DNA of 64,000 nucleotides from Desulfarculia bacterium (GCA_963662305.1 OY759352.1:818746-882745); one strand, 5' to 3'; counted from the first letter of the stretch, positions 1,546-28,305 are shown. Program-made: numbers and translations. The notes: generated by a model not told the origin, from the letters alone.

Positions 1546-1612
1546 GATTAATAAGAATTCGTCCCACAATATGTGGGTTTTATAAACTCGATTGTATTGG
1601 GGGAGATACAAG

Positions 1613-8648: not shown

Positions 8649-9123
8649 TACATACCTCTCTGAAAAAAGGTGGGGCTGTTTCAATGGTTGTTTCTGCGCC
8701 ATCCCGGCTGGGCGCTTCGGCGCCCAACGACCCTTGTCTCCCGCCGCCGGGCCGGGCTCCCCTCTCTGCGGCGGAAAATTATGCCGGGGTTGCGGGGGAG
8801 CCGTTCGTCCAGAGCCCGAATCAAGAAAACCCCAACCAACGGGTTAAGATCAGCATCGCCCCTTTGTCCGGAGCAATAGGGCGGGGGAGTCCCTTTTGGT
8901 GTTGCCAAAGGGCCGATTCCAGGTTCGTCTTGCCTAGCCTCATTGGATTTGATAGGCTGGCCTCTTTCTTTGTTGCACCTGCTTGACGGAGCAACGGCTT
9001 AGCGAATGAATTTCGGCCGATAAGCCACCCGGCCGGATATTTGATTGAAATTAAACGGCATAGGAACGACTCCTGCTTTTGAGGATCCAAAAGTCATAAC
9101 GGGATACGATTGAGGAATTAGAC

Positions 9124-10956: not shown

Positions 10957-10966
10957 TATTAAAAAC

Positions 10967-11101
10967 GGGGGGCATCTTTTTAAAAAGATTCCCCCCGGAC
11001 CCCCCTTCAAAACCTTATCCTGAATTTATCAGGCAGAGCCTGATAAATTCCTGAAAAGTTTCCGGAGGGGCCTGGGGAACCCTTTTCCAAAAGGGTTACC
11101 C
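10967..11101. repeat. Composite palindromic intergenic element (two imperfect inverted arms around a perfect 13-bp hairpin)
   Basis: Arms GGGGGGCATCTTTTTAAAAAGATTCCCCCCGGACCCCCCTTCAAAACCTT and AAAAGTTTCCGGAGGGGCCTGGGGAACCCTTTTCCAAAAGGGTTACCC; centre GAATTTATCAGGC-AGA-GCCTGATAAATTC. Confidence 0.7.
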
Positions 11102-11138
11102 ATCCTCGAAGACCCCTCAAACATATTGGAGAGCCGGC

Positions 11139-12341
<1,203 letters not shown>

Positions 12342-12371
12342 AGAGGGTGGTTGAAAGATAATGGCCATCAT

Positions 12372-12407
12372 AAGGTGTCGGGAGGTGCTCCCGACACCTT
12401 GCTTTTT
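12372..12407 (+). terminator. Rho-independent terminator after icd
   Basis: AAGGTGTCGGGAG-GTG-CTCCCGACACCTT followed by GCTTTTT. Confidence 0.85.
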
Positions 12408-13013
12408 AGTTAAGTCCGCATACTGGCCCGAATTGGCTCCGTAATTCCTTCTCTATCTCCCTACGGCCTGTAAAGTATCGGATCAGTGGTTTTTCTCCGA
12501 TAGCCCCTAATCGCCTCTGCTAATTTGTTCCAGAAAGGATCACGAAACCGTCAAGTGAGGGGCGCCCCGCGTGGGCTATCGGACCATGAGAGCTCATGCC
12601 GCTGAGTTTCGGGTTGGGTGGATGACTAAAGCGCTGGATGTTTCGACCAATGGATGTACTTGGCGGCGGTGTTGGACCTTCATTTCAGAAAAGCCGTCGG
12701 CTGGGCAATGAGTAACCGCATGACTATGCAACCGGCCATCAATGCCCTACTCATGGCGATCTGGAAAAAGAAGCCGCCCAAAGGCCTCCTCCATCGCTCC
12801 GATCGCGGCGGTCAATACCGCAGCGAGGAATACCGGAATTTACTGCCAAGACACGGCATCGTCTGCTCCATGTCCCGAAGGGGAGACTGCCGGGGCAATG
12901 CCCCCCGGAAAATTTCTTTCTTACTCTCAAAACCGAATTGATCCATAGAGGTGGACCCGGAGAACTGGACCAGGTGCTAAGGTGGACATATCAGCATCTG
13001 AGGAGAACTGAAT

Positions 13014-13301
13014 ATGTCCCGCAAGCGTAGAAATTTCAGTCCTGAGTTCAAGGCACGCGTGGCCCTGGAGGCTTTATCCAGTGAGCAGACTCTGTCGGAG
13101 TTGTCGTCCAAGTACGGAGTCCACCCTAACCAGATCTCGACTTGGAAGAAGCAGGCCAAGGAAGGGATTGTGGATTCCTTTTCCGGCCGCAGGAAGCGAG
13201 ATACCCAGGACAAAGATGCCCAGGTCAAGGAGCTTCACGCCAAGATCGGGCAGTTGACGGTTGAGAATGATTTTTTAGCCAAAGCCTTCGCCAAGATATG
13301 A
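13014..13301 (+). CDS. IS3-family transposase OrfA
   Basis: MSRKRRNFSPEFKARVALEA..GVHPNQISTWKK HTH; leucine zipper LHAKIGQLTVENDFL. Confidence 0.9.
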   Translation: MSRKRRNFSPEFKARVALEALSSEQTLSELSSKYGVHPNQISTWKKQAKEGIVDSFSGRRKRDTQDKDAQVKELHAKIGQLTVENDFLAKAFAKI

Positions 13302-14179
13302 GTATAGAGCGAAGGCGGGGTATGGTTGATAGGACCCATTCCGAACTGAGCATCCGGCGGCAATGCCAGATTCTCAGCATGAGGCGATCTTCCTATTATT
13401 ATAAGCCTGTTGGTGAGTCACCGTGCAACCTGGAGTTGATGAAAAAGATCGACGAGCTGTTCCTGGAATGCCCCTTTTATGGTTCCAGGCAGATACGGAC
13501 TTCACTGCGCGATCTGGGTTATGGAGTGGGCCGCAAAAGGGTTCAGCGGTTGATGCGTAAGATGGGGCTGATGGCCATCTACCGCAAGCCCAAAACCAGC
13601 CAGCCGCATCCTGACCACAAGGTCTATCCGTACCTGCTCAGGAACCTGGCGATCGATCGGCCCAACCAGGTGTGGTGCAGCGATATAACGTACATTCCCA
13701 TGAGACGTGGCTATATGTACCTGGTGGTGATCATGGACTGGCACACCCGGGCGGTGCTGTCCTGGCGGCTGTCCAACACCATGGATGCCGACTTCTGTGT
13801 GGATGCCCTGAACGAGGCCCTGTCCCGTTACGGGGTTCCCGAGATCTTCAACACCGACCAGGGCTCGCAGTTCACCAGTCGGGAGTTCACTAAAGGAGTC
13901 AAAGACGCCGGGGCCAGAATATCCATGGATAGCCGGGGCCGTTGGTTGGACAATGTGATGATCGAGCGTCTGTGGCGGTCGCTGAAATACGAATGCGTTT
14001 ATCTGAGGGAAGATGAGACCCTCAGCCAGTTGCGCGGCTTACTGAGATGGTGGTTCGACCTCTACAACTACCGTCGGCCCCACTCCGCCCTTGACGGAAA
14101 AAAGCCGATGATCGAATATCAAAAGGCCTTCAAGCCAGAGGGGGTACCCCCTCTGGCTTGCCAAAGAAAGGCGGCGTGA
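13298..14179 (+). CDS. IS3-family transposase OrfB (DDE integrase)
   Basis: PNQVWCSDITYI, FNTDQGSQFTS, DNVMIERLWRSLKYE; ATGA overlap with orfA. Confidence 0.92.
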   Translation: MSIERRRGMVDRTHSELSIRRQCQILSMRRSSYYYKPVGESPCNLELMKKIDELFLECPFYGSRQIRTSLRDLGYGVGRKRVQRLMRKMGLMAIYRKPKTSQPHPDHKVYPYLLRNLAIDRPNQVWCSDITYIPMRRGYMYLVVIMDWHTRAVLSWRLSNTMDADFCVDALNEALSRYGVPEIFNTDQGSQFTSREFTKGVKDAGARISMDSRGRWLDNVMIERLWRSLKYECVYLREDETLSQLRGLLRWWFDLYNYRRPHSALDGKKPMIEYQKAFKPEGVPPLACQRKAA

Positions 14180-14626
14180 TCCATAAAACTGTCCACCTTA
14201 AATGCGCCGCAAAGTGGTCCAAAGAAATGGGGCCACCTCTCCATCACATGAACTACAGGTTCAGGCAGGAGGCCAAGTCCGACATTTTTAACTACATCGA
14301 GTGGTTCTACAATCCAAAGTGACGCCTCTCATCTCCCGGCTATCCATCACCAGCCGAGTATGAACGAAACGCCAATGTGGCTTAACCCGTGCCCATTATT
14401 CCGGGGGAAGATCAGCTCGACGATCCTCAAGATAAAATTGACAGATACAGGACGGTAAGATAAACAAAGCTAACTTTAGGTCAGCCTAGATAGGCGTCTT
14501 CCTCGAAATGATCGGCCGACCTTATAGAGATGGAAATCGTTGCGGGCGAGTGGAACGGCATTACTGATTTTACGGGCTGAAAAGGGGACCGCCTGAGGGG
14601 CTTGTGCCCTTAAAAGGAGTTGAGCT

Positions 14627-16522
14627 ATCTGCGGAATATGCGGCTTCAGTGGATCTGGTGATCCGTCTGTGCTCAGGCGGATGAACCAGACTATTTTTCA
14701 CCGGGGACCGGACGATGAGGGTTTTTACGAGGAGAACGGGGCCAACCTGGCCATGCGCCGTTTATCTATCGTGGACCTGGGCACGGGCGGCCAGCCCATC
14801 AGCAATGAAGATGGTACCATCTGGGTTGTCTTCAACGGAGAAATTTACAATCATCAGACTCTTCGACATGACTTGATCGTCCGCGGCCATCGCTTTAAAA
14901 CAAGCCACAGCGATACTGAGACGATCGTGCATCTTTATGAGGAGTACGGACCGCTATGGCCCCATAAGGCCAAGGTCAACGGCATGTTCGGTCTGGCCTT
15001 GTGGGATAGCAGGGAAAGAAAACTGCTTCTTTACCGCGACCGGATCGGCAAAAAACCACTGTATTACGCCCTGGCCGGGGGAGAACTGATCTTCGGGTCA
15101 GAGATAAAAGCCGTTTTAGCCCATCCGGCGGTCACCTCTGATCTGGATTTCAACTCTCTCAGCAATTATTTCAGCCTGAAAAACACTAGCGCTCCGGCCA
15201 CCGCCTTCAAAAATGTTCGGCAGTTAATGCCCGGTCACTATCTTTCATTTTCTGATTCAAGGATTGTTGAAGAACCCTACTGGACTCTTAATTTCAGCAA
15301 TATAATTGAAGACCTCACCCCGCAGGAGGCGGCTCAGGAGCTGACCGGGCTTCTGGACGATGCCGTCCGCCTGAGAATGCAGTGCGATGCTCCCTTTGGA
15401 GCCTATCTCTCGGGAGGAGTCGACTCTTCATCGGTGGTGGCTCTCATGTGCCGTCATCACCATCTTCCGATTAAAACTTTCTGCCTGGGTTACGAAGACA
15501 AGGCCGACGGACAGTTTAAGGGCAAAGGCGAGGATATTAAACACGCCCGGGCCATGTCACGTCTGCTTCATACCGAGCATCATGAGTACATCCTGACAGC
15601 TGAAGAATTCGCTCGGCGACTGCCCGAAGTGCTGAGCTCCTTTGACGAACCCTTCTCCGGTACGGTGTCCACCTTTTTCTTGAGCATCCTGATCCACCAG
15701 CATGTTAAGGTGGCCCTCACCGGCGACGGTGCGGACGAGCTGTTCGGGTCCTACCTCAGCCACAGGCTGGCCTGGCCGATGCATCATTTTCTGGGGTTCA
15801 GCCCCAGGCCGCTTTTCGAACAGCTGTCGACAGTTCAGAAAAGCTTGATCAAGCCGTTCGACACGCCGCGGGGTTTTGCTTTTCTGAGTTCCCTGGCCGA
15901 TCCGCATCAGGAAAAATGGCGGAGCAGGCTCTTTGTTTTTGACAAGAAGGAAAAGGAGAGGCTGTTCAACCCTCTTTTCGCGGAGCAACTGGACGGTGTG
16001 GACAGCGAGGGCATGATGGCCGGCCTGTCAGATTCAGGCACCGCAATGGATCCCTTGAACCGGGTTCTGGAGGTGGACCAGCGGGAGCTGCTGGCCAACC
16101 AGGTTCTGCCCTTCATGGACCGTCTTTCCATGGCCCACTCCATAGAGGCCAGGTCGCCATTCCTTGATTACCGCATCATCGAGTTTGCCAACCGCCTGCC
16201 TGGAGATTTTAAGATCAACCAGGGGATAAACAAATATGTTCACAAGTTGGCTGTGGAAAAGCTTATTCCCAAGGAGCTGATCGAACGGCCCAAGGAGGGA
16301 TTTGTCCAGCCCATCTATTCTTGGATGAGAGGCAGTCTCCGGACCTGGGTGGAGGCGACCTTGAGCCGGGAAAGACTTGCCCGGCATGGGTTTCTAAACT
16401 ATAAAGAGGTGGACCGGCTGGTCAAAGAGCACCTGGAGGCCAAGTCTGATCACTCTGCCAAGATTTGGAGCCTGCTCTGTTTCCAAATTTGGTACGAGGG
16501 CTTGAAAGGAAAGCTTGAATAA
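14627..16522 (+). CDS. asnB: Asparagine synthase (glutamine-hydrolysing)-family amidotransferase, glycan-associated; ATC at expected start
   Basis: In frame from 14627: ATC TGC GGA ATA TGC GGC = (M)CGICG; HRGPD, RRLSIVDL, FNGEIYN, RDRIGKKPLYY, LSGGVDSS, GDGADELF, RPKEGF. Confidence 0.88.
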   Translation: MCGICGFSGSGDPSVLRRMNQTIFHRGPDDEGFYEENGANLAMRRLSIVDLGTGGQPISNEDGTIWVVFNGEIYNHQTLRHDLIVRGHRFKTSHSDTETIVHLYEEYGPLWPHKAKVNGMFGLALWDSRERKLLLYRDRIGKKPLYYALAGGELIFGSEIKAVLAHPAVTSDLDFNSLSNYFSLKNTSAPATAFKNVRQLMPGHYLSFSDSRIVEEPYWTLNFSNIIEDLTPQEAAQELTGLLDDAVRLRMQCDAPFGAYLSGGVDSSSVVALMCRHHHLPIKTFCLGYEDKADGQFKGKGEDIKHARAMSRLLHTEHHEYILTAEEFARRLPEVLSSFDEPFSGTVSTFFLSILIHQHVKVALTGDGADELFGSYLSHRLAWPMHHFLGFSPRPLFEQLSTVQKSLIKPFDTPRGFAFLSSLADPHQEKWRSRLFVFDKKEKERLFNPLFAEQLDGVDSEGMMAGLSDSGTAMDPLNRVLEVDQRELLANQVLPFMDRLSMAHSIEARSPFLDYRIIEFANRLPGDFKINQGINKYVHKLAVEKLIPKELIERPKEGFVQPIYSWMRGSLRTWVEATLSRERLARHGFLNYKEVDRLVKEHLEAKSDHSAKIWSLLCFQIWYEGLKGKLE

Positions 16523-16578
16523 AATTGGGTGACGAGGATAAGAGTTCTAACCCTTGCGGATGGGTTTGCCAAGGCAAG

Positions 16579-17112
16579 ATGAAAATCAGACGAGGCAGCG
16601 CAAACGATCTGGATTTTATCTGTGATTTGGAGTCGCGGATGGACTATAGGGGTTTATTTTATGTGTCCAGCCGCTCCGAGCACTTGGATAATATCTCTAA
16701 TCCTAATTATTATTATGTTATTGGGGAAAACGATAATAACCGACAGGTCGGATTCGTTATCCTCAGAGGCCTGGAATCTCCCAACCGATCAGTGGAATTA
16801 GCCCGAATAATCGTCTCCACGCCGGGCCAAGGATCGGGGCAGGGGCTTTTGCAGGCGGCGGCTGAAGTTGTTTTTGACGAATATGGGGCCAATCGGCTTT
16901 GGCTTAATGTTTTTGCCGACAACACCCGGGCAAGAAAGGCGTATTCCGCTGCGGGTTACAGAGCGGAAGGAATCTTACGGCAGGCGGTGATAATGGATGG
17001 CGTGTACAAAGACCTGGTGATGATGGCCATCCTGGCGGAGGAATATATTGAACTCCGAAACAAGCTTTCGGGCCCAGGGGGGCCGCAACTTGATCATAAT
17101 CCAGGTAACTAG
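16579..17112 (+). CDS. GNAT N-acetyltransferase (RimJ/RimL/SpeG-like)
   Basis: PGQGSG acetyl-CoA loop, RLWLNVFADNTRARKAY..GY.AEGILRQ; start at ATG 16579 assumed. Confidence 0.8.
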   Translation: MKIRRGSANDLDFICDLESRMDYRGLFYVSSRSEHLDNISNPNYYYVIGENDNNRQVGFVILRGLESPNRSVELARIIVSTPGQGSGQGLLQAAAEVVFDEYGANRLWLNVFADNTRARKAYSAAGYRAEGILRQAVIMDGVYKDLVMMAILAEEYIELRNKLSGPGGPQLDHNPGN

Positions 17113-17167
17113 CCACACCAGAAAGAGGTTTTCCCGGCTTCCGTCTCAAGGCAATTCGATAGTATAG

Positions 17168-18181
17168 GTGAATATGGATATTGAAAAATCCCAGCGTGAA
17201 TCGCTCGAAGAGGTGGAGGCCAGCCTGGTCGATCATCCTTTCCCTCCTCAGTTGGTGGTTGAAACAACCTCCCGCTGTAATATGAAGTGCCTCCACTGTT
17301 CCCACAAGGAGATGAAGAGGGAGCGGGCCGATATGGAGGGAGAGCTTTTCAAGAAAATCGCCCGAGAGGTGGTCCGGGAGAAGCCGGATTGCGAGATTTG
17401 GCCGACTTTTTACGGAGAGGCGCTGTTATTGGGGGAAAAATTGTGGCGCCTTTTGGACTACGCCGATGAAGTCGGCTGTACCAATATGGTTCTCAATTCC
17501 AATGGAATTATGCTCGCGCAACCCGGTGTCGTAGAGGCTGTGCTCGATTCTCCCTTGCGAAGGTTTATTTTGAGCCTTGATGGTTACAGCAAGGAGGTTT
17601 TTGAAAAAATCCGCGTCGGGGGCAACCGGGACAAGATTTACGCAGCCGTGGAGAGGCTTATCGCCACGAAAAAGGAGCGAAGTCAGGAGTTTCCGGTAAT
17701 TCAGTGCCAGTTTTCAATCCTGGATGAAAACGAACACGAACTGGAACCGTACCGGGAGCATTGGCAGTCCCTGGGGGCGGAGGTGAAAACTAGACGCAAG
17801 CTCACTTGGACTTCCACCGGCAGCATAACAGCCTCCTGGATGAATCCGGAACCCGATTTCAGGATTGCCTGCCCTTGGGGCAACAACGCTGCGGCCATCC
17901 TGCAAAACGGAGATATGGTCGCCTGCGCGGTGGACTATGAGGGCCGCTTCGTCGCCGGAAATGTGAACCGCGGTTCAATCAAGGAGATCTGGGCGGGCAG
18001 CCACAAGAGCAAACTCCGTATCCCCCACCGGGAACACCGCTGGGAGGATATCCCCGAAATATGCAGGACCTGTCCCGACTGGCAGGCCGTGGGGGCCAAA
18101 TACATAGGGCATGAGGGAAAAAGGAACGGGGCCCGGCCTTTTTGGCACAAAGAGCGTGAAAGCGAGATCAATAATGGATAA
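17168..18181 (+). CDS. Radical SAM enzyme with twitch (single auxiliary cluster) domain
   Basis: CNMKCLHC (CxxxCxxC), YGEALL, SLDG; C-term CPW..GDMVAC..GNV..SIKEIW..CRTC. Confidence 0.88.
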   Translation: MNMDIEKSQRESLEEVEASLVDHPFPPQLVVETTSRCNMKCLHCSHKEMKRERADMEGELFKKIAREVVREKPDCEIWPTFYGEALLLGEKLWRLLDYADEVGCTNMVLNSNGIMLAQPGVVEAVLDSPLRRFILSLDGYSKEVFEKIRVGGNRDKIYAAVERLIATKKERSQEFPVIQCQFSILDENEHELEPYREHWQSLGAEVKTRRKLTWTSTGSITASWMNPEPDFRIACPWGNNAAAILQNGDMVACAVDYEGRFVAGNVNRGSIKEIWAGSHKSKLRIPHREHRWEDIPEICRTCPDWQAVGAKYIGHEGKRNGARPFWHKERESEINNG

Positions 18182-19163
18182 ACCGGTCCATACCCTGGAA
18201 GAGTACGGCATACGTGAGCAGGCCCTTGAATTTCCGATGATGCTTGTTCTCTCATTCGTCTACATCTGCAATGCCAAATGCCCCAATTGTCCCTATACCA
18301 ACTCCTCCATCCGAGAAGACTACTCTGATTCGCTGATCATGTCGGAAGACATCTTCAAAAAAATCGCCGACGAGGCCGGTCCATACGGAGCCTGGTTGAG
18401 GGTTAGCGGCGGCGGGGAACCGATGCTTCATCCCCAGGCCGTTGAGTTGTTCGAATACGCCAAAAAGGCGGGCTGCCGGTTGGGGCTCATCACCAACGGT
18501 TCGCGGTTTGATAATGAAAAATTTGGTCGTCTTCTCAACGCCGGGGTGGACATGATCGAGTTTTCGGTGGATGCCGCAGACGAAGAGACCTATTCGCGGG
18601 TAAGGCCCGGACTCGATTGGAACAGGCTGGTGGAATCGGTTCGGAGCGTGGTCAAAATGCGCAACGAAAAGAAGGCGTCGACAAAAATTACTGCCAGCGG
18701 CATAAACCAGACCGGGGTGGACATCGATGCGGTGGCTTCCTTTTGGGAACCGCTGGTGGATAAATTCCAAAAGCGCAAGTACCTGACCTGGGGCATAAAT
18801 GAGGATCATTCCGCCGATCCGGTTCCTTATCTGCCGCCGGAGGAAAGGATACCCTGTCCCTTTCTGTTCGAGAGGCTGAACATAGACTCCAGAGGCAAGG
18901 TGATGGTTTGCGGTTTCGATATCAAGGCCGTTACCAACATGGGCAACATTTCCAAGCAGAGCATAAAGGATGTTTGGCAGGGGAAGGGGTTTGAGCATTT
19001 CCGCCGCCTGCATCTGGACCGGAAGGGCGACCGGATTCCCTTGTGTCGGGACTGCCCGGATTGGAAATACCGCTCCTGGAATTACAATTACTGGAATATA
19101 GTCAATAAGGCGGAGGAGAAAAGACAAGCCAGGCTGTCCCAGGAACCTTCAACAGCCAGCTAA
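18174..19163 (+). CDS. Second radical SAM enzyme with twitch domain
   Basis: CNAKCPNC, GGGEPMLHP, ITNGS, FSVDA; C-term CPF..GKVMVC..GNI..SIKDVW..CRDC; start MDKPV overlaps upstream stop. Confidence 0.88.
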   Translation: MDKPVHTLEEYGIREQALEFPMMLVLSFVYICNAKCPNCPYTNSSIREDYSDSLIMSEDIFKKIADEAGPYGAWLRVSGGGEPMLHPQAVELFEYAKKAGCRLGLITNGSRFDNEKFGRLLNAGVDMIEFSVDAADEETYSRVRPGLDWNRLVESVRSVVKMRNEKKASTKITASGINQTGVDIDAVASFWEPLVDKFQKRKYLTWGINEDHSADPVPYLPPEERIPCPFLFERLNIDSRGKVMVCGFDIKAVTNMGNISKQSIKDVWQGKGFEHFRRLHLDRKGDRIPLCRDCPDWKYRSWNYNYWNIVNKAEEKRQARLSQEPSTAS

Positions 19164-19166
19164 CTG

Positions 19167-19880
19167 ATGGTAATCGGAATTCTTCAACCAGGCTATCTGC
19201 CTTGGCTGGGCTTTTTTGAACAGATGATGAGGTCGGAGGTCTTCGTCATCCTCGACGACGTTCAATACGATAAGCACGGCTGGCGGAACCGGAATCGAAT
19301 CAAGGGCCCTCGGGGGCCGGTCTGGTTGAGCGTTCCTGTGCTGACCAAGGGCCAGCATAAGCCTTTGGTCAAGGAGGTCAGGATTGATCCGCATCAGCCC
19401 GGTTGGCCGAAAAAGCACCTGGGAACCATCCGCCAGCATTACTCTGGCGCGGCCTATTTCGACGAATACTTTCCGCATCTGGAACGCATTTTAACCAACT
19501 CCTGGGAGTACCTCATAGATCTGGACATGGCGTTGCTCCATCTTATGGCCGGGTGGTTTGGCCTTGATCCTAAAATCGTTTTTTCCTCCCGGCTGAATAT
19601 CAAGGAGGAGAATCCCAACGAGCGCCTTATCGAGATAATCGGATCCCTGGGGGGCAAGGTTTTTTATGAAGGTGCGGCCGGAAGGGACTATATTGACCTT
19701 TCGCCGTTTGATAGGGCCGGCCTAACAGTGGTTTTCCAAGACTACAAGCCCATGCCGTACCCGCAGCAATACGATGGATTTCACCCTTTTCTTTCCGCCC
19801 TGGACCTGCTTTTCAACTGCGGTCCCGACAGCTCCCGTTTTCTACCCGGATTGAGCGTCCCCAAACTGACGCTCACTTGA
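19167..19880 (+). CDS. WbqC-family protein (putative aminoacyl/glycine transferase in O-antigen-type clusters)
   Basis: ILQPGYLPWLGFF, LDDVQY..GWRNRNRIK, WLSVPV, GRDYID, YPQ..F.PFLSALDLLFNCG. Confidence 0.88.
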   Translation: MVIGILQPGYLPWLGFFEQMMRSEVFVILDDVQYDKHGWRNRNRIKGPRGPVWLSVPVLTKGQHKPLVKEVRIDPHQPGWPKKHLGTIRQHYSGAAYFDEYFPHLERILTNSWEYLIDLDMALLHLMAGWFGLDPKIVFSSRLNIKEENPNERLIEIIGSLGGKVFYEGAAGRDYIDLSPFDRAGLTVVFQDYKPMPYPQQYDGFHPFLSALDLLFNCGPDSSRFLPGLSVPKLTLT

Positions 19881-20797
19881 TAACGATTATAAGGAATAAT
19901 CATCTTTTGGGATCATATTTTACAAAAAAATTCGAGGGTTCCGTTTCCCTGCTCTCCTGGGCGTACAACGAAGAGGTATTGATCGCCTCTTTTTTAGAGC
20001 GGGCCGTGTCCTTGATGGAAGCTAACATAAGGGATTGGGAGATTGTTATAGTTAACGATGGGAGCACCGACCGTACGCCTGAAATCATAGCCCGGTATGC
20101 GGACCGCGAGCCCAGAATAAGGCTAATCAACCACGACAAAAACCTTAATGTGGGTTGGGCCTGCCGGACTGCGGTAGCCAATGCCGAAAAGAAATACTTG
20201 TTTTGGGAGACTGTCGATTGGTCTTATGATCTTAAGAATATCCGGATTTTTTTGGAGCTGTTGAAGCATTTTAACGTGGTCCAGGGGATTAGGCCGACGC
20301 CCATAAGGCTCTTAAGCTACATTCCGGTCATCCGTTCCATTTACCGGGTCAAGACCAGATCGGATAATGTGAAAAGCGCCCTGGTGAGCCTGACGAATTA
20401 CTACCATCTCAGGCTGCTTTACGGGGTGCCTTTCCATGATTTTCAGAATGTCACCTTCTATCCTACTAAATTGGCCCAATCAATAGACTTGACCGCAACC
20501 AGTGCCTTTGTTAACCCGGAACTTCTAATTAAATCATTCCACAAAGGAGCGACTTTCATTGAGGTTCCCATCCGCTTCATAAAACGAAGCGCCGGCCAAG
20601 CCAAGGGGATCAAACCCAGGGCTCTCTGGAATGCGTTTAAGGATGTTTGGCTCAACTGGTTCCGGTGGGGACTGGCTCTGAGGATAAAGAAAATCGACCA
20701 GGGGAATAGCCAAATAGCCAGGGTTTACCGCCAGTCTGGTTTCGGCGGAGAGATCGCTCAATTGATCGAACCCCTGTTAGCGGAATTCAACCGGTGA
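19877..20797 (+). CDS. GT2-family glycosyltransferase (polyprenol-phosphate GT-like)
   Basis: WAYNEE, EIVIVNDGSTDRT, HDKN, IEVPIRFIKRSAGQAK; canonical DxD region altered (WETVDWSY). Confidence 0.8.
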   Translation: MITIIRNNHLLGSYFTKKFEGSVSLLSWAYNEEVLIASFLERAVSLMEANIRDWEIVIVNDGSTDRTPEIIARYADREPRIRLINHDKNLNVGWACRTAVANAEKKYLFWETVDWSYDLKNIRIFLELLKHFNVVQGIRPTPIRLLSYIPVIRSIYRVKTRSDNVKSALVSLTNYYHLRLLYGVPFHDFQNVTFYPTKLAQSIDLTATSAFVNPELLIKSFHKGATFIEVPIRFIKRSAGQAKGIKPRALWNAFKDVWLNWFRWGLALRIKKIDQGNSQIARVYRQSGFGGEIAQLIEPLLAEFNR

Positions 20798-20956
20798 CTG
20801 GCGGTGAGGAGGCTTTTAAAAACAGTCTATCATCCCATTTAAGTGGAATTAGATTGAAAGAATGCAGCATCAAGAATAGATGCGGGAAATCATAAACTTT
20901 ATTAAGATAAAGAAACGGTGCTACCCAAAAGCCCCTGAAAAGGTGGATGAGTTGTT

Positions 20957-21970
20957 TTGAACATAAATGCAAATAAAGATTTATCATCCCCCGGCTCATC
21001 ACCGCAACGGTCTGGACGTCGACTTTACGGCCTGATCAGGGGAGTAATCGCCGCCGTTTTTTTGGGCGGATTGATTTTTTCCGGCAAATTAGATTTTCAC
21101 CTTTTCCCGGGCATTGTCTCTTCCGGGCGTCTGCCTTGGTTCGGCCTGGGAGTTTTCGTTTTCGTCCTTTCCCAGCTCGCGGCCGGTTACAGGATCTATC
21201 TGCTTTTGGCTTCCCAAGGATTGAAATATCCTTTTGCGGTCTGTCTAAGAGCTATTTGGGTGGGCTTGGTTTTTAATCATTTTCTGCCCGCCTCCATCGG
21301 CGGCGATGCGGCCAAGGTTTATTCGTTCTATGGTTCCAAGAAGGAGAGTCTCGCCTCGATAACGGCCGCGGTCGTTTTTGACCGGGCCATGGGCCTGCTG
21401 GGACTGTGCTTTTTAGCTCTCGGCGGGACGGTGATCTCCTACCTTTTTGTTCCCGGTGTGTCCCAGGGAAGTGAGAGGGGATGGCTTTATCAAAGTTTGG
21501 CCGCTCTAGTCGTGGTCGCCATGTTGGCCGCTATCTCCCTGATTGGGTTGTCCAGATTGAAGTTCATCACCAAAATTCCCGAATCAAGACGGTTTTTCCG
21601 AGTTATCAAGACGATTTTTCTGGACCTCGCTGTCTTTAGCCATCGCCTGTGGCTGTCCGGATACTGCTGTTTGATCTCGGTTTGCATTCATCTGTTGAGC
21701 GCCTTTGGGATATACAGCCTCACCAAGGCCCTTGCCGGCCAGGCGGACCTTGGAAAGACACTGATTTTGGGCCCGATTGTTTTTTTAGCCAATGTGGTTC
21801 CCGTAAGCATAGGAAACATCGGTTGGTCCGAATACGTCGGTTACTTGGTTTGGAGCGATCATGGGTTGGTATACGGCGGCCAAATTTGGTTGGCCCAGAG
21901 ATTGGTAGCCATCCTGGTCAGCCTTCCGGGCCTATTGTTTTTCCTGCAACACAAAAGACATGAAGGATAG
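20957..21970 (+). CDS. Lysylphosphatidylglycerol-synthase-TM (UPF0104) flippase-like membrane protein
   Basis: FNHFLPASIGGDAAK, VVFDRAMGL, VPVSIGNIGWSE; ~8 TM segments. Confidence 0.8.
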   Translation: MNINANKDLSSPGSSPQRSGRRLYGLIRGVIAAVFLGGLIFSGKLDFHLFPGIVSSGRLPWFGLGVFVFVLSQLAAGYRIYLLLASQGLKYPFAVCLRAIWVGLVFNHFLPASIGGDAAKVYSFYGSKKESLASITAAVVFDRAMGLLGLCFLALGGTVISYLFVPGVSQGSERGWLYQSLAALVVVAMLAAISLIGLSRLKFITKIPESRRFFRVIKTIFLDLAVFSHRLWLSGYCCLISVCIHLLSAFGIYSLTKALAGQADLGKTLILGPIVFLANVVPVSIGNIGWSEYVGYLVWSDHGLVYGGQIWLAQRLVAILVSLPGLLFFLQHKRHEG

Positions 21971-21972
21971 AG

Positions 21973-23109
21973 TTGATGAAGGTCGAGTTCTTTCGTCACG
22001 GCTTAAGCCAAAAAAACATCGGACAGATCAGCCGAGTAATAGAGACGCCGTTCCTCACCACGGGTGCCACCACTGCCGAATTCGAAAAACGGCTGGCCGG
22101 TTATTTGGGGCAGGCGGGTTGCGTCGGTCTGACCAGCGCCACCGCAGCCCTGCACCTCTCCCTTTTGGTTTTGGACGTGGGCCCGGGAGACGAGGTGATA
22201 ACAACGCCTCTGACCTTTGTCGCCACGGCCCTGGCGGTCATGCACGCCGGAGCCAAACCGGTCTTTGTAGACGTGGAGGAGGATACCGGGAATATCAACG
22301 CGGACCTGATCCCCGAGGCCATTACCGGGAACACAAAGGCCGTTATTCCGGTTCATCTCTATGGCCAAATGGTTGACATGGAGGCCTTAGCCTCCCTATC
22401 CAAAAAGTATGACCTGAAACTTATCGAAGATGCGGCTCATTGCCTGGAAGGCCAAAGAGACGGCCATCAGCCAGGGGATCTGGCCGATACGGCATGCTTC
22501 AGTTTTTACGCGACCAAGTCCATTACCTCCGGAGAGGGCGGCGCGGCGGCAACGAACAATTCCCGGTTGGAAAAAAGGCTGCGAACGCTGAGCATTCACG
22601 GTATGACAACGGACGCCGTCGCGCGGTATGATAAACTATACCGACATTATGACGTGGTCGAGCACGGCTGGAAATATAACATGAGCAACATCCAGGCGGC
22701 CTTACTGCTTGACCAGCTTGATGACGTGGAGGCCAAACGGCTTGAACGGGAACGGATCGCCTTGACATATCGGGAAGCCCTTTCCGGGCAACCAGGGATA
22801 GAGATGCCTTCCTTGAAACATGGCGTTAAGCAGGCGCATCATCTGTTCACCATATGGGTTGACCCCCACAAGAGAGACTCGATTTTGCACCAACTCCAGG
22901 AGGAGGGGGTGGGCGTTGCCGTGAACTACCGGGCCTGCCATCTTTACACTTTATTCAGGGAAAAGTTCGGTTGCAACGAGGGCCAGTTTCCCGTGGCCGA
23001 GGAGATCGGGGCCCGAACGATCAGCCTGCCCCTCTATCCAAGCTTGACCGATAAGGAACAGGATTACGTGATTTCCCGAGTGAAATGTATCGTATCAGCG
23101 AGGGGCTAG
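21973..23109 (+). CDS. DegT/DnrJ/EryC1/StrS-family PLP sugar aminotransferase (ArnB-like)
   Basis: SATAALHL, GDEVITTPLTFVAT, PVHLYG, IEDAAH, FSFYATKSITSGEGG, RTISLPLYP. Confidence 0.92.
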   Translation: MMKVEFFRHGLSQKNIGQISRVIETPFLTTGATTAEFEKRLAGYLGQAGCVGLTSATAALHLSLLVLDVGPGDEVITTPLTFVATALAVMHAGAKPVFVDVEEDTGNINADLIPEAITGNTKAVIPVHLYGQMVDMEALASLSKKYDLKLIEDAAHCLEGQRDGHQPGDLADTACFSFYATKSITSGEGGAAATNNSRLEKRLRTLSIHGMTTDAVARYDKLYRHYDVVEHGWKYNMSNIQAALLLDQLDDVEAKRLERERIALTYREALSGQPGIEMPSLKHGVKQAHHLFTIWVDPHKRDSILHQLQEEGVGVAVNYRACHLYTLFREKFGCNEGQFPVAEEIGARTISLPLYPSLTDKEQDYVISRVKCIVSARG

Positions 23110-23111
23110 CC

Positions 23112-24650
23112 GTGATAGAAGCCGACCGCCTGGGTATTGTTTTCGTAACCTGGGAACTTTCCCCCTACAGAAAAAACACCGGTGTGGCCGATCTTTTGAA
23201 AACAGTGATCTCTGATCTCAGAAAACGCGGGATTCCGGTTGGAATCATCGCCCCCGATTTCAATATTCCCCAGAATAGAATTGCCCAAGAGCAACCGATC
23301 TCCTTGATAAGCACTCTATCCGGCAGCGGATCAGAATCAATCCTAATCCATCACGGCATTGATGAGGAGGGGGTTCACCTTTTCATCGTAAATGGTCCGG
23401 AATACCGGAAATATTTCTCGGAAGAATCTTCTTCGCTAACTGAGGATCAGACGGGCCGAATGTGCCTTAAGTTTTGTTATTCGGCCTATCTATTGATCGA
23501 CCTTTTGGCCTCCCACAGGGGACCGCTAAACACGGACAAGATAGTGGTCCATGCCTTCCATTGGCAATCCGGGCCGCTCATGGAACTACTCAGGCGCAAA
23601 GAGTTCCCCATTCCGGTCAAAACGGTTATGACCGCCGACATCCTAGACCGACAGGGCCTGTTCGATTCCAGCATATTGGAGGCGCACGAAATTTTCCGCC
23701 ATCTCCAAAACCAATCAAGTGAAATCAATTTTTTAAAGCTAGGCCTCGAATCCAGCGATATTTTGCACACGGTCAGCCCTAATTTCGCCCGGGAGATACA
23801 GACGCCGCCCCACGGCAGAGGACTGGAAAAATTGTTTAACCAACGCTTTGAGGCTGGCCGTTTGATCGGTATCCTCAACGGGTTGAGTCATGAGGGCACC
23901 AGTTGGGACACAATAACTGAAGCCATCGGCGGTCAAGAGGCCACTGAGCCCAACGGGGCTGATCTGGATCTGATTATGAGATGGAAAAGCAACGCCAAGC
24001 TGTTTTTTCAAAAACAAGCATGCCTTTCCCCAAATCCGGATAGCTTCCTCATTAGTATGGGCCATAGGTTTGTTAAACAGAAAAATTTCGAGGTCGTGGG
24101 TGAGGCCTTGCCCAAACTAATGGAACTCGATCCCCGACCGCAAATATATCTCAGGACCTGGCCGGAACCTGAGCCCGGTGACAATAATTGGGATTTGTGG
24201 CTGAAGATAGTTAGGTTGGCCAAAAGGTACAGATTCAACGTGGCTTTTTTGTCGCCTTTTGACCGGGCGGAAGAGCTTATGGGAGAGGGGATATTTATTG
24301 ATCGCAATATTTATTACGCCGCTTCTGACCTTTTCCTTATGCCCTCCATATGGGAGCCTTGCGGATTATGCCAGCTGGAGGCAATGCGCTTCGGAGCGAT
24401 CCCCGTGGTAAACCCGGTCGGCGGGCTGGCCGACACGGTCAAATCCGTTGATGACGGTCCAGACGGTTGGGGCTTCTGGCTAAAGGAATCTTCTTCTCCC
24501 CAACAATTGGTGGAAGTGGTTGCCGAGGCCATGGATATTTGGAAGAGTGAACCCGAGAAATGGCGGGGCATGGTTAAGCGAGCCCTTAACTATGATTCCA
24601 AGATAAGCGTCACCGTTGATAGGTACCTGGAGTTCTTATACGGAACATGA
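23112..24650 (+). CDS. Divergent GT5 (glycogen/starch synthase-like) glycosyltransferase
   Basis: TVSPNFAREIQT..G.GL, LIGILNG, SDLFLMPSIWEPCGLCQLEAMRFGAIPVV..VGGLADTV; KTGG motif replaced by KNTG; GTG start at 23112 assumed. Confidence 0.8.
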   Translation: MIEADRLGIVFVTWELSPYRKNTGVADLLKTVISDLRKRGIPVGIIAPDFNIPQNRIAQEQPISLISTLSGSGSESILIHHGIDEEGVHLFIVNGPEYRKYFSEESSSLTEDQTGRMCLKFCYSAYLLIDLLASHRGPLNTDKIVVHAFHWQSGPLMELLRRKEFPIPVKTVMTADILDRQGLFDSSILEAHEIFRHLQNQSSEINFLKLGLESSDILHTVSPNFAREIQTPPHGRGLEKLFNQRFEAGRLIGILNGLSHEGTSWDTITEAIGGQEATEPNGADLDLIMRWKSNAKLFFQKQACLSPNPDSFLISMGHRFVKQKNFEVVGEALPKLMELDPRPQIYLRTWPEPEPGDNNWDLWLKIVRLAKRYRFNVAFLSPFDRAEELMGEGIFIDRNIYYAASDLFLMPSIWEPCGLCQLEAMRFGAIPVVNPVGGLADTVKSVDDGPDGWGFWLKESSSPQQLVEVVAEAMDIWKSEPEKWRGMVKRALNYDSKISVTVDRYLEFLYGT

Positions 24651-24819
24651 TTTTTAGGCCTTTGCTCTATGGATTGCCAAACCATTATATCCACAGATCG
24701 AATACCATCATGAAATTGCAAAATCAACATCCAGCGATTTTCTTGTGAACTTAATGGGTTTGATATCATTTCTGGTCAATCAAAACAGGCCGCTTAGTAG
24801 CGTTGAGGGATTTTGGTAA

Positions 24820-25440
24820 ATGATACGTGCTTTACTGAACGATGTCTGCCAAAGGGTAATTACATTCGATAAGCTGGATCAGCGGCGCTATCTGAGGAGA
24901 CGCCTAATTGAAATGGGGCTGGGCAAAAGCCACCAAGCTCTTGATTTCGGATGCGGAACGGCGTTGTTCGCGAGGGAATTCAAAAAATTAGGCATAAATT
25001 ACGTGGGCTATGATATCGATGCTGGCCTCCTTGCCTTCAACCGGATGAAACATCCCTGGGCCCGGTTTACGTCGTCCTTATCTTCCCTGGATCAAGGGGA
25101 AGCTTTTGATTTAATACTCAGCAACTGTTGTTTTCATCATGTAACCGATAAGGACCTCGACGAAATTTTAGGGTGGATGGCCTCCAGATTGACGGGTGAA
25201 GGTCGGTTGCTGATAATAGACGTATTCGAGGAGGGACCGGGAAAGAGCGCCCTCCGGCATTTGCTTTTAAAATTGGAGAGGGGGGCCTACTTCCGTCGTC
25301 TTGACAGCTATGCCGATTCGGTGAGGAAATTTTTCGACATTATCGACTTGCAGATATGCAAATGCAACTTGTTTCCCGGGCAGCGGGGGCCGACAGCGAG
25401 CAGTTTGGTGGTCTATAAATGCAAGGCGAGGAATAACTGA
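24820..25440 (+). CDS. Class I SAM-dependent methyltransferase
   Basis: ALDFGCGT, YVGYDID, FDLILSNCCFHHV, L..EGRLLI. Confidence 0.85.
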   Translation: MIRALLNDVCQRVITFDKLDQRRYLRRRLIEMGLGKSHQALDFGCGTALFAREFKKLGINYVGYDIDAGLLAFNRMKHPWARFTSSLSSLDQGEAFDLILSNCCFHHVTDKDLDEILGWMASRLTGEGRLLIIDVFEEGPGKSALRHLLLKLERGAYFRRLDSYADSVRKFFDIIDLQICKCNLFPGQRGPTASSLVVYKCKARNN

Positions 25441-25534
25441 CACCCTCGAGCAGGATCAGGCTTAGCCGACTCTTTCTTTTTTGCACCATTCTATCCCAAC
25501 CCAAGCCCATCGCTCGGATAGGACAGCCCCTCGT

Positions 25535-26224
25535 TTAGTTTTCGTCAAAAAAGATCATCGGATAGGCCAGCTCCTCCGTGGCCGGGGCGGTGGTGATCCT
25601 CAGCCCGTCCACGATGCTCTTTTTTATCTTGGCCAGGTGGCCGGTCACGGCGGCGGTGAGGCCCTCGAGATCTCGTTTGGCCAACTGCCGGGCGATATCC
25701 TGATGCTCGTCGGACGAGGTTTCGAACATGCTGTGGGAGACCAGGTCCTTGTTGTATTTGAGCAGCAGCCTGTCGAACAGGTCCTTTAGCAGCTTGGGTT
25801 GAATCCTCCGTTTGGACAGGCCGGCCAGAGTCAGGTGAAATTTCATGTCCGTCAGCAGACGGCGATAGTGATCTCCGTTGGCCGAAGCTTGGCTGTGATC
25901 CTCCACAGCCTTGAAGATGCTCCGGAGGCCGTCCTGGTCCAGATTCTTGACCACAAAGGGCAGAAGGGCCACCTCGAGGATAAGCCGGGTGTCGTAAATC
26001 TCCTCCACCTCGTCCACGGAGATGCCCTTGATAAAATAACCCCGGTTAGGTTCGTGCTGGACAATATCTATGAATTCCAGCCATTTCAAAGCATGAATCA
26101 CCGGCGTGGTGCTGAGGCCCAGCTTCTTGGCCAGATCTCGGTAGGATGTTTTCTGCCCGGGCGAAATCTCGTTGTTGAACAGCATCTGACACAGTCCGGC
26201 AAAGGCTTTTCGGTCCTGATTCAC
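25535..26224 (-). CDS. GntR-family transcriptional regulator (FCD domain)
   Basis: wHTH LAKKLGLSTTPVIHALKWLE..PNRGY; FCD EIYDTRLILE, DMKFH, EHQDI, GHL; divergent from downstream operon. Confidence 0.85.
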   Translation of the reverse strand: MNQDRKAFAGLCQMLFNNEISPGQKTSYRDLAKKLGLSTTPVIHALKWLEFIDIVQHEPNRGYFIKGISVDEVEEIYDTRLILEVALLPFVVKNLDQDGLRSIFKAVEDHSQASANGDHYRRLLTDMKFHLTLAGLSKRRIQPKLLKDLFDRLLLKYNKDLVSHSMFETSSDEHQDIARQLAKRDLEGLTAAVTGHLAKIKKSIVDGLRITTAPATEELAYPMIFFDEN

Positions 26225-26509
26225 CTTCCCTCGCTTTTTCCTGTAGGGTTTCCTGGGTTGATCAAACCGGTTTTAAACTGGCTTTTTTCCCGCAACCTTA
26301 TCACATTCTGACGAAAAATTTTGATTAAATAATTTATCACCGATTCAAGGCCTCTTTGGCGGAGTAGGAGCCAACCCCCGGCCACCGGTCGCCGCTGCCA
26401 AATCATTTTACCCCAACCGATGCACTAGTCCATCAATTGCTCATGTTTCAGGTCTGGGATCAGTTCCTCCTTTCCGTTCCGGTAAATAAAGCCCGGGCCA
26501 GAAAGGGTC

Positions 26510-26539
26510 TTGACAAGAGAGATCTCATATAAATAAAAT
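26510..26539 (+). promoter_or_regulatory. Putative sigma70 promoter of the catabolic operon
   Basis: TTGACA (26510-26515), 18-bp spacer, TAAAAT (26534-26539) in AT-rich intergenic region. Confidence 0.55.
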
Positions 26540-26592
26540 GACAAATGTTATAAGAAAAGAAACCAGGTTTTAAATATTCTTAGGTTTTAAAA

Positions 26593-28305
26593 ATGACTGG
26601 AGCCCGAGCTACCGTCGAAATGCTGAGGGGTTACGGGGTCGAAGCCATCTTCGGCGTTCCCGGGGACACCAGCCTTCCCCTTTACCAAGCTCTTTACCAG
26701 GCAGACGGCTCGCCGCGGCACATTATGGCCCGGGACGAGAGGTCGGCCTCTTTCATGGCCGACGCCTATGCCCGCCTGTCCCATAAGCCGGGCCTGTGTG
26801 AGTGTCCCAGCGGAGCCGGTCCCCTCTACGCCCTGCCCGGAGTGGCCGAGGCCAACGCCTCCTCCATTCCGGTCATCCTTCTCACCTCGGATATTCCCCT
26901 GGCCGGTCACGGCAAGCAGACCATCACCGAGCTGGAAACGGAGAGCCTTTTCCGGACGGTGACCAAGTGGTCCTGCCTGGTCACCGGCCCGGATAAGGTC
27001 CCGGAATCCCTGCGGCGGGCCTTCCGGATTGCGGTCAGCGGTCGACCGGGGGCGGTCCACCTGGCCCTGCCCAAGGAGGCCATGACCGGCCCGGTGCGCC
27101 CCGACGATTGTTATGCCGAGTCGGACTGCCGGTCCTATCCGGCCTTCCGCACCCGGGGGGCGCGGGAGATGCTGGAGAGGCTGGCCCGACTGCTGGTGGA
27201 GGCCGTTCGGCCGGTGGCGGTGGCCGGGGGCGGGGCCAACCACTCCCAGGCCGGCCAGGCGCTGACCGCCCTGGCCGAACACCTGGCCATGCCGGTGGTG
27301 ACCACCATCTCCGGCCAGGGGATCATGGCCGACACCCACCCCCTGGCCCTGGGGGTCATCGGCGACAACGGCTACCACCCCCACGCCCATCGGGCCATGG
27401 AGGAGAGCGACCTGCTGTTCTTCGTGGGCTGCAAGAGGGGTTCGGTGTCCACGGTCAACTGGACCATGCCTCGCCCCGACCCAAACCGCAAAATCGCCCA
27501 ACTGGACATCAATCCGAGCCTGCTGGGCAACAACGAACCCAACGACCTGAGCGTCTGCGGCGACGCCCGGCTGGTCCTTGAAGACCTGCTCATCCTGGTC
27601 CGGAAGGCGGCCGAGGCCGGGAAAACCTCGCCTTGGGTGGAGGGGCTGAACAGGGAGCGGGCCGCTTTCTGGGATCAGGCCGCCTCGTTCGCCTCGCCCG
27701 CCGGCCGACCCTTGGACCCCCGAACCGTCATCGCCGCCTTGAACCGCCATCTCGCCGGGCCCAGCGTGGTCATCGCCGACGCGGGAACCCCCACCCCCTA
27801 CACGGCCCGTTTTCTTAAACTGGAGGCTCCGGGCTCCCGGTTCCTGATTCCCCGGGCTTACGGCGGCCTGGGGTATGCCATTCCGGCCCTGGTGGGGGCC
27901 CATCTGGCCCGGCCCGGGGCCCGGCTGGCGGCCCTTTTCGGCGACGGCAGCCTGGGCATGTCGGCCGGCGAGTTGGAAACCCTGGCCCGGTTGGGCGTCC
28001 CTGCCGTCCTGATCCATTTCAACAACGGCTCCTTCGGCTGGATCAAGGCCCTTCAGAATCTGCACAGCCGGGGCCGGTACTTTTCGGTGGATTTTACCCC
28101 CGGCGATCCTGTTCTGGTGGCCCGGGGCTTCGGCCTGGAGGCCCGCCGGATTTCGGGCCCGGAGGAACTGGACCAGGGTCTGGCCTGGGCTTTCGCCTCG
28201 GCCGGTCCGGTCTTTTTGGACGTCCCATCCCTGCCCGAGACGGAGCAGCTCCCGCCGGTCAAGACCTGGGAACTGGCCGCCGCCGGGGAAGGGGAAGGAG
28301 CTTAG
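26593..28305 (+). CDS. Thiamine-diphosphate-dependent enzyme (acetolactate synthase-like fold)
   Basis: IFGVPG, RDERSASFMADAYAR, SGRPGAVHL, GGLGYAIP, ThDP motif GDGS..NNG. Confidence 0.88.
   Translation: MTGARATVEMLRGYGVEAIFGVPGDTSLPLYQALYQADGSPRHIMARDERSASFMADAYARLSHKPGLCECPSGAGPLYALPGVAEANASSIPVILLTSDIPLAGHGKQTITELETESLFRTVTKWSCLVTGPDKVPESLRRAFRIAVSGRPGAVHLALPKEAMTGPVRPDDCYAESDCRSYPAFRTRGAREMLERLARLLVEAVRPVAVAGGGANHSQAGQALTALAEHLAMPVVTTISGQGIMADTHPLALGVIGDNGYHPHAHRAMEESDLLFFVGCKRGSVSTVNWTMPRPDPNRKIAQLDINPSLLGNNEPNDLSVCGDARLVLEDLLILVRKAAEAGKTSPWVEGLNRERAAFWDQAASFASPAGRPLDPRTVIAALNRHLAGPSVVIADAGTPTPYTARFLKLEAPGSRFLIPRAYGGLGYAIPALVGAHLARPGARLAALFGDGSLGMSAGELETLARLGVPAVLIHFNNGSFGWIKALQNLHSRGRYFSVDFTPGDPVLVARGFGLEARRISGPEELDQGLAWAFASAGPVFLDVPSLPETEQLPPVKTWELAAAGEGEGA

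Follow-up and report, generated by a model that had tools for sequence, protein, structure and literature searches.

An apparently horizontally acquired gene island carrying a widespread, putative amino-sugar tailoring cassette

The described systems closest to the gene island reported here, ten genes at positions 14627 to 25440 of a 64,000-nucleotide stretch of DNA from a Desulfarculia bacterium (GCA_963662305.1, OY759352.1:818746-882745; this whole stretch is called the window below), each share part of its enzyme set. BtrN, the 2-deoxy-scyllo-inosamine dehydrogenase of butirosin biosynthesis (PDB 4m7s/4m7t), resembles two proteins of the island in joining a radical S-adenosylmethionine (SAM) core to a single-cluster twitch domain, and it is likewise partnered with a DegT-type aminotransferase. 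It is, however, a single enzyme of aminocyclitol antibiotic genes, whereas the island carries two paralogues in a nucleoside diphosphate (NDP)-sugar/polysaccharide gene context. BlsE, the cytosylglucuronate decarboxylase of the blasticidin S pathway (PDB 7vob), is a further twitch/SPASM-type radical SAM enzyme that acts on a sugar. In the bacillithiol and mycothiol pathways (BshC, MshC/MshD), the logic of an amino sugar, an aminoacyl ligation, and a GNAT cap is like that of the island, except that the amino sugar comes from a deacetylase there and from a transaminase here, and the combination of a ligase, a GNAT, and an AsnB-like amidotransferase recalls the synthesis of N-acetylglutaminylglutamine amide. 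The Arn pathway for lipid A modification with 4-amino-4-deoxy-arabinose (Ara4N) is alike in its DegT-family aminotransferase, GT2 glycosyltransferase, flippase step, and N-formyl or N-acyl intermediate. Finally, the loci of Escherichia coli O121 and Shigella dysenteriae 7 (VioA, WbqC, and WbqG) and of Francisella (WbtH/WbtI/WbtJ/WbtM) contain DegT, WbqC, and AsnB-like proteins (or a formyltransferase and RmlB) and make N-acylated 4-amino-4,6-dideoxyhexoses and uronamides; to our knowledge, these clusters are without a radical SAM pair.

We read the island as a horizontally acquired segment carrying a widespread, uncharacterized amino-sugar tailoring cassette whose mechanism we infer, and we hold this reading to be probable, if not strongly so. 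No description of the cassette was found in our literature searches, nor did these turn up an O-antigen or capsule pathway to which the cluster could be matched. The ten genes are as follows.

14627/14669-16522, plus strand: AsnB-like glutamine-dependent amidotransferase (Asn_synthase 2e-91, GATase_7)
16525-17112, plus strand: GNAT N-acetyltransferase (Acetyltransf_1 2.3e-10)
17168-18181, plus strand: rSAM1, predicted twitch-type radical SAM enzyme (Pfam Radical_SAM and SPASM domains)
18174-19163, plus strand: rSAM2, predicted twitch-type radical SAM enzyme (Pfam Radical_SAM and SPASM domains)
19167-19880, plus strand: WbqC-family protein with a BshC/class I aminoacyl-tRNA synthetase-like fold, proposed amide ligase (PF08889 2.5e-70)
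19877-20797, plus strand: GT2 glycosyltransferase of soluble type (Glycos_transf_2 1.1e-19)
20957-21970, plus strand: MprF-flippase-like polytopic membrane protein, LPG_synthase_TM (PF03706 3e-23)
21973-23109, plus strand: DegT/PseC/ArnB-type pyridoxal phosphate (PLP)-dependent sugar aminotransferase (PF01041 1e-111)
23085-24650, plus strand: GlgA-like GT-B glycosyltransferase, GT5 (Glyco_transf_5 5.6e-25)
24820-25440, plus strand: class I SAM-dependent methyltransferase (Methyltransf_23, _12, and _11)

The genes lie head to tail, with junctions that are mostly overlaps or gaps of 2 to 55 nt and two longer gaps of ∼160 to 170 nt, and each of the ten frames is open from end to end. Coordinates, strand, and the Pfam and NCBIfam matches agree with the tightly linked ten-gene island and the domains named in the original prediction, which had been made from the DNA alone. 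That prediction had also noted that the cluster lacks a nucleotidyltransferase and an NAD-dependent dehydratase or epimerase; among open reading frames (ORFs) of at least 80 amino acids, no nucleotidyltransferase and no short-chain dehydrogenase/reductase (SDR) was found anywhere in the 64-kb window. For rSAM2, the most likely start is the ATG at 18174 rather than position 18111, which had been taken earlier.

We traced the cassette in other genomes with rSAM2. A scan of one genome per species gave 82 confirmed places, and 80 loci were kept, in which rSAM2 is 51 to 74% identical; their record titles name many phyla, including Thermodesulfobacteriota, Nitrospirota, Alpha-, Beta-, and Gammaproteobacteria, Planctomycetota, and Elusimicrobia, among others. 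All 80 loci were searched by tblastn with the window proteins and representatives of recurrent neighbors, and synteny was counted over the 45 loci that had 7 kb or more of sequence to either side. AsnB accompanied rSAM2 in 43 of these 45 loci, an rSAM1-type gene in 42, and WbqC and DegT in 40 each; the five-gene core of rSAM1, rSAM2, AsnB-like, WbqC, and DegT was complete in 34. An RmlB-like SDR was present in 42 of the 45, a tblastn count that may take in unrelated SDRs, and the SDR of the cassette scored 349 bits on the dTDP-glucose 4,6-dehydratase model, just below its cut-off of 365. GNAT (20 loci) and formyltransferase (13 loci) were near-exclusive alternatives that occurred together only once. 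GT2 was seen in 18 loci, a B12-radical SAM protein in 13, LPG_synthase_TM in 12, and GT5 in 1 (2 of the full 80). The core genes travel together across phyla, usually with an RmlB-like 4,6-dehydratase and with a GNAT or a formyltransferase.

The rSAM1 partner occurs in two forms, one ∼50 to 70% identical and directly upstream of rSAM2, the other ∼35% identical and upstream of AsnB. The type of island described here is common to two loci (L005 and L009) and in part to two others (L001 and L002), and has GT5, LPG_synthase_TM, and the methyltransferase in place of the dehydratase, which was either lost or never present. In another locus (L014), the cassette lies between genes for a Wzx-type flippase, a UDP-glucose dehydrogenase-family protein, RmlA, and RmlC, a polysaccharide setting that bears out the idea of a sugar-tailoring island. 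Gene fusions were also found. Among 16 long WbqC homologues, WbqC was joined to AsnB in 1, a methyltransferase in 3, an SDR in 2, a radical SAM domain in 2, and a GNAT in 3, with 5 showing WbqC only; with a single exception, these homologues form clusters of one member each, and some could be artifacts of gene calling. In 14 long rSAM2-like representatives, formyltransferase domains were detected in 3, GNAT in 1, and WbqC in 1. We note that three proteins (P0027, P0029, and P0030) carry a sugar-type formyltransferase N-terminal to an rSAM2-type enzyme (374 to 436 bits with the rSAM2 profile). The wider rSAM2-like family comprises 1181 clusters (50% identity) at E values up to 1e-30.

rSAM1 and rSAM2 are paralogues with 26% identity, and both contain the CX3CX2C motif (CNMKCLHC in rSAM1 and CNAKCPNC in rSAM2). 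The invariant cysteines are C37/C41/C44 and the C-terminal C235/C253/C299/C302 in rSAM1 (41 aligned sequences), and C32/C36/C39 and the C-terminal C228/C246/C291/C294 in rSAM2 (50 aligned sequences). Each protein thus has exactly four invariant C-terminal cysteines, spaced C-x17-C-x44/45-C-x2-C, in a region that matches the Pfam SPASM domain (1.1e-11 and 1.4e-13). Because four C-terminal cysteines, and not seven, would serve as ligands for one auxiliary cluster, both enzymes are predicted to be of the twitch type, as first proposed; the spacing of the auxiliary cysteines resembles what we take to be that of BtrN. None of the NCBIfam radical SAM models reached its cut-off for either protein; on the model for twitch domain-containing radical SAM proteins (NF033640, cut-off 170), rSAM1 scored 32 bits and rSAM2 scored 64.

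To place the two enzymes, family profiles were searched against all solved chains in the PDB and the matches ranked by E value. BtrN came first for both. For rSAM1, BtrN (2e-19) was followed by GDGT-MAS (3.3e-8), MoaA (1.4e-6), an anaerobic sulfatase maturase (3.4e-5), and BlsE (3.9e-5); for rSAM2, BtrN (7.4e-14) was followed by BlsE (8.4e-9), 7wzv, titled SpeY (4.3e-5), PqqE (6.6e-5), and an anaerobic sulfatase maturase (1.3e-4). The rSAM2 model (predicted local distance difference test [pLDDT] score of 90.9) superposes on BtrN with a Z score of 19.7 and a root mean square deviation of 2.5 over 206 residues. Identity to BtrN is nonetheless low: in a single-sequence search, the match had an E value of ∼1e-8 and covered the N-terminal core only. 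The likeness to BlsE, the second match of the rSAM2 profile, is likewise limited, as the BlsE NCBIfam model gave 43 bits against a cut-off of 400 and the island is without a uronic acid-forming gene.

These comparisons bear on the reading that the radical SAM pair matures a peptide (a ribosomally synthesized and posttranslationally modified peptide, RiPP) or a sulfatase-like protein and that the sugar genes are unrelated neighbors. The fold of rSAM2 speaks for it to the extent that SuiB (Z of 20.1), BtrN (19.7), BlsE (19.4), DesII (19.0), and ChlB, SkfB, and the anaerobic sulfatase-maturating enzyme anSME (19.4) all lie within 1.1, so that SuiB, SkfB, and anSME are tied with the sugar enzymes. 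By sequence profile, however, the pair does not group with peptide or sulfatase maturases: the rSAM1 profile matches BtrN at 2e-19 versus 3.4e-5 for the sulfatase maturase, only four auxiliary cysteines are conserved, and across phyla the two enzymes are linked, and in some proteins fused, to sugar enzymes. We therefore regard peptide or sulfatase maturation as highly improbable.

The original prediction had assigned the radical SAM pair a different role, in which the twitch enzymes form the keto/deoxy sugar anaerobically, taking the place of an NAD-dependent dehydratase or epimerase, after which an Arn/Gtr-like GT2 and a flippase load a polyprenol carrier. The island itself and its closest full-length counterpart, L009, are indeed without an RmlB-like SDR, and a flippase-like membrane protein is present. 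By sequence profile, BtrN is the nearest solved relative of both enzymes; it oxidizes an alcohol to a ketone, which is then aminated by a DegT-family aminotransferase. Against this stands the SDR found beside the radical SAM pair in 42 of 45 loci and in L003, a close relative of the island. Since an NDP-hexose 4,6-dehydratase is its usual companion, the pair is unlikely to be an anaerobic substitute for one. The host genome also has its own RmlB, which scored 440 bits against the cut-off of 365 and adjoins RmlD; several nucleotidyltransferases and a LegB/LegC-like pair are encoded there as well. Nor is the cassette confined to anaerobes, as it is present in records of Methylocapsa and Nitrospira, both of which are aerobes.

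The carrier-loading step of this reading fared no better. ArnC/GtrB-type polyprenyl-phosphate glycosyltransferases have C-terminal membrane helices, and the GT2 of the island has no transmembrane-like segment (Kyte-Doolittle maximum of 0.99 in a 19-residue window, with none reaching 1.6). The ArnC model (cut-off, 529) gave it 24 bits. In the PDB search, chondroitin synthase and TagF were its best solved matches, and ArnC matched only at ∼1e-3 over residues 21 to 93; the likeness of the GT2 and flippase to Arn/Gtr is thus weak. The Arn pathway differs further in that the DegT protein falls below the ArnB cut-off (291 versus 631), and no ArnA, ArnD, or ArnT-like domain was found among the Pfam matches of the window. 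We consider it unlikely that the twitch enzymes make the keto sugar and feed an Arn-like carrier, and conclude that they probably do not replace the dehydratase. In the simpler reading, the 4-keto-6-deoxy intermediate most likely comes from the RmlB of the host.

The protein on which the proposed chemistry turns is WbqC, for whose function no paper was found in our literature searches. It matched PF08889 with 237 bits (gathering score, 21.3). A model built from 49 sequences (pLDDT of 93.5) had BshC (4wbd) as its best match, with a Foldseek E value of 3e-4 and a probability of 0.99, and an independent alignment to representatives (VIA) gave a Z score of 14.0 over 222 of 237 residues. Further fold matches were class I LysRS (Z of 11.1), GluRS (8 to 9), and then ArgRS, CysRS, and MshC (6.6), consistent with a Rossmann-like class I aminoacyl-tRNA synthetase core shared with BshC and MshC. 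WbqC has 237 amino acids versus 540 in the BshC chain, so that the core fold alone is matched and not the full BshC architecture. A protein atlas search with WbqC returned WbqC clusters only. BshC is described as the putative enzyme adding cysteine to the amino sugar GlcN-malate (PMC5790435). From the modeled fold and the gene context, we suggest that WbqC may couple the amine installed by DegT to a carboxylate, probably that of an amino acid, through an amide bond.

Two paralogues of this protein are encoded elsewhere in the same genome. One, 32% identical, lies in a Maf locus (MptE-like and tetratricopeptide repeat proteins; L101, G000:C2:2506000-2525999, positions ∼7524 to 16708) that also encodes a cytidylyltransferase, a class III aminotransferase, a radical SAM/SPASM protein, a GNAT fusion, a B12-radical SAM protein, and a methyltransferase, and is probably a flagellin-glycan tailoring set. 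The other, 33% identical, stands alone (L100, G000:C1:2507000-2526999, positions 10138 to 10842), with a serine recombinase and a Prok-E2/ThiF-JAB gene pair around it; these surroundings are mobile-element or defense-like, and no sugar genes are nearby.

The remaining enzymes were assigned at the level of family. The AsnB-like protein passed the model for the glutamine-hydrolyzing asparagine synthase family (TIGR01536; 430.5 bits, cut-off of 267.1) and stayed below that for the XrtA/PEP-CTERM amidotransferase (TIGR03108; 496.3 bits, cut-off of 816.9). The best NCBIfam match of the GNAT was PseH, at 43 bits with a cut-off of 93. DegT met PF01041 (374 bits) and fell below the cut-offs for PseC (331.4 bits, cut-off of 423.5) and ArnB (291.2 bits). 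The membrane protein, with about eight hydrophobic segments, passed PF03706 (83.2 bits, gathering score of 33.4) and reached neither the bifunctional MprF model (33 bits, cut-off of 600) nor TIGR00374 (22 bits, cut-off of 43). GT5 is GlgA-like along its full length (E. coli GlgA, E value of 7e-33) and scored 236 bits on the GlgA model TIGR02095 (cut-off of 328). A hopanoid-type reading (HpnI/J/L-like) was dropped, because the matches to Hpn models all stayed well short of the respective cut-offs and belonged to genes of other loci rather than to the GT2 or the membrane protein of the island.

The evidence for acquisition comes from composition, mobile elements, and distribution. The G+C fraction is 0.47 to 0.56 across 13 to 27 kb (1-kb windows), compared with 0.57 to 0.64 upstream and 0.61 to 0.71 downstream, and that at third codon positions is 0.54 to 0.67 in the ten island genes versus 0.75 to 0.89 in seven flanking genes, so the island is more AT-rich than its flanks by both measures, as had been claimed. 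A search of 30 relatives detected rSAM2 in only 2, and it was not found in either of the 2 same-family genomes. Together with the insertion sequences (IS) at the left edge, this patchy occurrence and the composition make the island look horizontally acquired. Scans for promoters, terminators, Rfam families, and tRNAs gave nothing useful on boundaries or regulation. A second low-G+C stretch (0.46 to 0.58) lies at 38000 to 53000 of the window and encodes STAS/GAF/PAS partner-switching proteins, an HATPase, a SpoIIE-like protein, and hybrid histidine kinases, together with fragments of IS66, and was probably acquired as well.

The IS3 elements noted earlier at the left edge are real and nested, a complete element sitting within an older IS3-family transposase and splitting its two halves.

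12630-12941, plus strand: 5′ piece of the older IS3-family transposase (Pfam rve 3.4e-16), interrupted by the later IS
12942-14239, plus strand: complete IS3-family element of 1298 bp (HTH_Tnp_1, HTH_21, rve, and rve_3), with orfA at 13014-13301 and orfB at 13298-14179
∼14222-14385, plus strand: 3′ remnant of the older IS3-family transposase, whose frame ends in FNYIEWFYNPK

Public sequencing runs of another study contain a second strain, in which the island is kept at ∼97 to 99% identity. Its contigs, one each in runs X3 and X4 (two runs of one sample), join position 12941 to 14240, skipping 1298 bases with 5 shared letters and leaving the pieces of the old transposase contiguous. Because these contigs are without it, the 1298-bp insertion appears to be recent and polymorphic. 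Indels among the 40 of 395 differences listed fall at 17163 (intergenic) and 26348 to 26378 (past the last gene), with none in the ten frames. A further run, X1, matches perfectly and may be the source of the assembly, hence not independent; a joint from 11282 to 27256 in one X1 contig was disregarded, as it had only 21 letters on the shorter side.

The start of the AsnB-like gene requires separate comment. Position 14627, earlier given as its start, holds ATC, a nonstandard codon, where the orthologues have ATG (54) or GTG (3; together 57 of 57). The ATC directly precedes CGICGF, which supplies the catalytic N-terminal cysteine, and a GGAG lies 7 nt upstream. This glutamine amidotransferase cysteine is kept in all 57 orthologues examined, and translation from the GTG at 14669, which is the next standard start, would leave it out. 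Either the gene is translated from a rare start or its glutaminase function is impaired. The unusual codon, the nested IS3 elements at the edge, and the missing dehydratase would all suit an island that is a decaying, nonfunctional passenger of mobile elements. Yet the ten frames are open at full length, a good Shine-Dalgarno sequence stands 7 nt before the ATC, and the second strain has conserved the island with the listed indels avoiding its frames. Decay is, in our estimation, improbable.

In the pathway that we propose for the cassette, the host RmlA/RmlB pair would supply an NDP-4-keto-6-deoxyhexose, a source suggested because the island is without a dehydratase of its own, and DegT would aminate it to an NDP-amino-deoxyhexose. 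WbqC, as a minimal BshC/class I aminoacyl-tRNA synthetase-like enzyme, would then couple the amine of the sugar to an amino acid or a different carboxylate; our guess for its substrate is an acidic amino acid. From this proposed ligation follow the roles suggested for the other enzymes: the glutamine-dependent AsnB-like enzyme would turn the remaining, second carboxylate into an amide, and the GNAT, or in other genomes the formyltransferase, would cap the free amine. The two BtrN-like radical SAM enzymes may oxidize or epimerize the sugar, or the substituent that it carries, at unactivated positions; oxidation or epimerization at unactivated carbons is favored by analogy with BtrN-type and related enzymes. 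The methyltransferase would add a methyl group, the GT2 and the GlgA-like transferase would attach the sugar to an acceptor, and transmembrane movement of a lipid-linked form may fall to the MprF-like membrane protein.

The same gene set could be read as a pathway whose product is no surface polymer but a small glycoside, either soluble or lipid-anchored, following the logic of mycothiol and bacillithiol or of N-acetylglutaminylglutamine amide. WbqC with its BshC-like fold does occur beside a GT-B transferase and a GNAT, neither Wzx, Wzy, nor a priming transferase was found in the window, and the AsnB-like protein scored 353 bits on the N-acetylglutaminylglutamine amidotransferase model. The model has a cut-off of 570, however, which this score does not reach. 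Copies of the cassette in other genomes are part of polysaccharide loci, the paralogous WbqC of the genome studied here is in a Maf-type locus, and GT5 accompanies the cassette in 2 of 80 loci only. We judge a small-glycoside product to be quite unlikely, and prefer the reading of the island as an amino-sugar tailoring cassette.

Several points weigh against this preferred reading. The amine of the sugar could itself be the target of the GNAT or formyltransferase, which would leave WbqC and AsnB without a proposed substrate, and 13 of the 45 loci have neither of these capping enzymes. The ATC start may mean that the AsnB gene is poorly expressed or inactive. Stricter all-against-all clustering lowers the count of loci with the SDR to 36 of 45. 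The fold comparison of rSAM2 ties sugar enzymes with peptide enzymes. For WbqC, the proposed label of ligase is drawn from fold and gene context, and its profile found no sequence match among solved chains in the PDB at E values up to 10. The reaction of BshC is itself described as never having been reconstituted (PMC5790435). A priming transferase, Wzx, and Wzy are likewise missing from the ORFs of at least 80 amino acids in the window, which leaves the island without a pointer to its acceptor.

Should the amino-sugar reading be correct, two new activities are possible, which we put forward tentatively and with clearly less confidence than the reading itself. WbqC would aminoacylate a nucleotide-activated amino sugar, and the twitch pair would carry out two radical steps on the nucleotide sugar or on the amino acid substituent, namely, epimerization or oxidation at carbons beyond ordinary NAD- or PLP-dependent sugar enzymes. 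The product would be an undescribed N-(N-acyl-aminoacyl-amide) deoxyamino sugar on surfaces across many phyla.

Three further genes of the window, outside the island, were recorded in the course of this work. The 610-amino-acid frame at 9124 to 10956 has an HMGL-like domain (aldolase/carboxylase TIM barrel) and, at its C terminus, a Cache/PDC sensor domain, an unusual pairing. A 488-amino-acid protein with beta/gamma-crystallin and peptidase-inhibitor I36 repeats is encoded at 1592 to 3058, and a 1012-amino-acid CheB-CheR fusion with PAS domains at 54265 to 57303.

Amino-sugar tailoring clusters are common; what sets this one apart is that it is conserved and widespread and includes three enzymes with uncharacterized reactions. 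The island described here is a compact, self-contained version of the cassette that could be cloned whole. Solving the cassette would give the WbqC family its first function, would extend the repertoire of twitch radical SAM enzymes to nucleotide-sugar chemistry, and would account for a decoration of surface glycans with possible importance in recognition by phages and the immune system.

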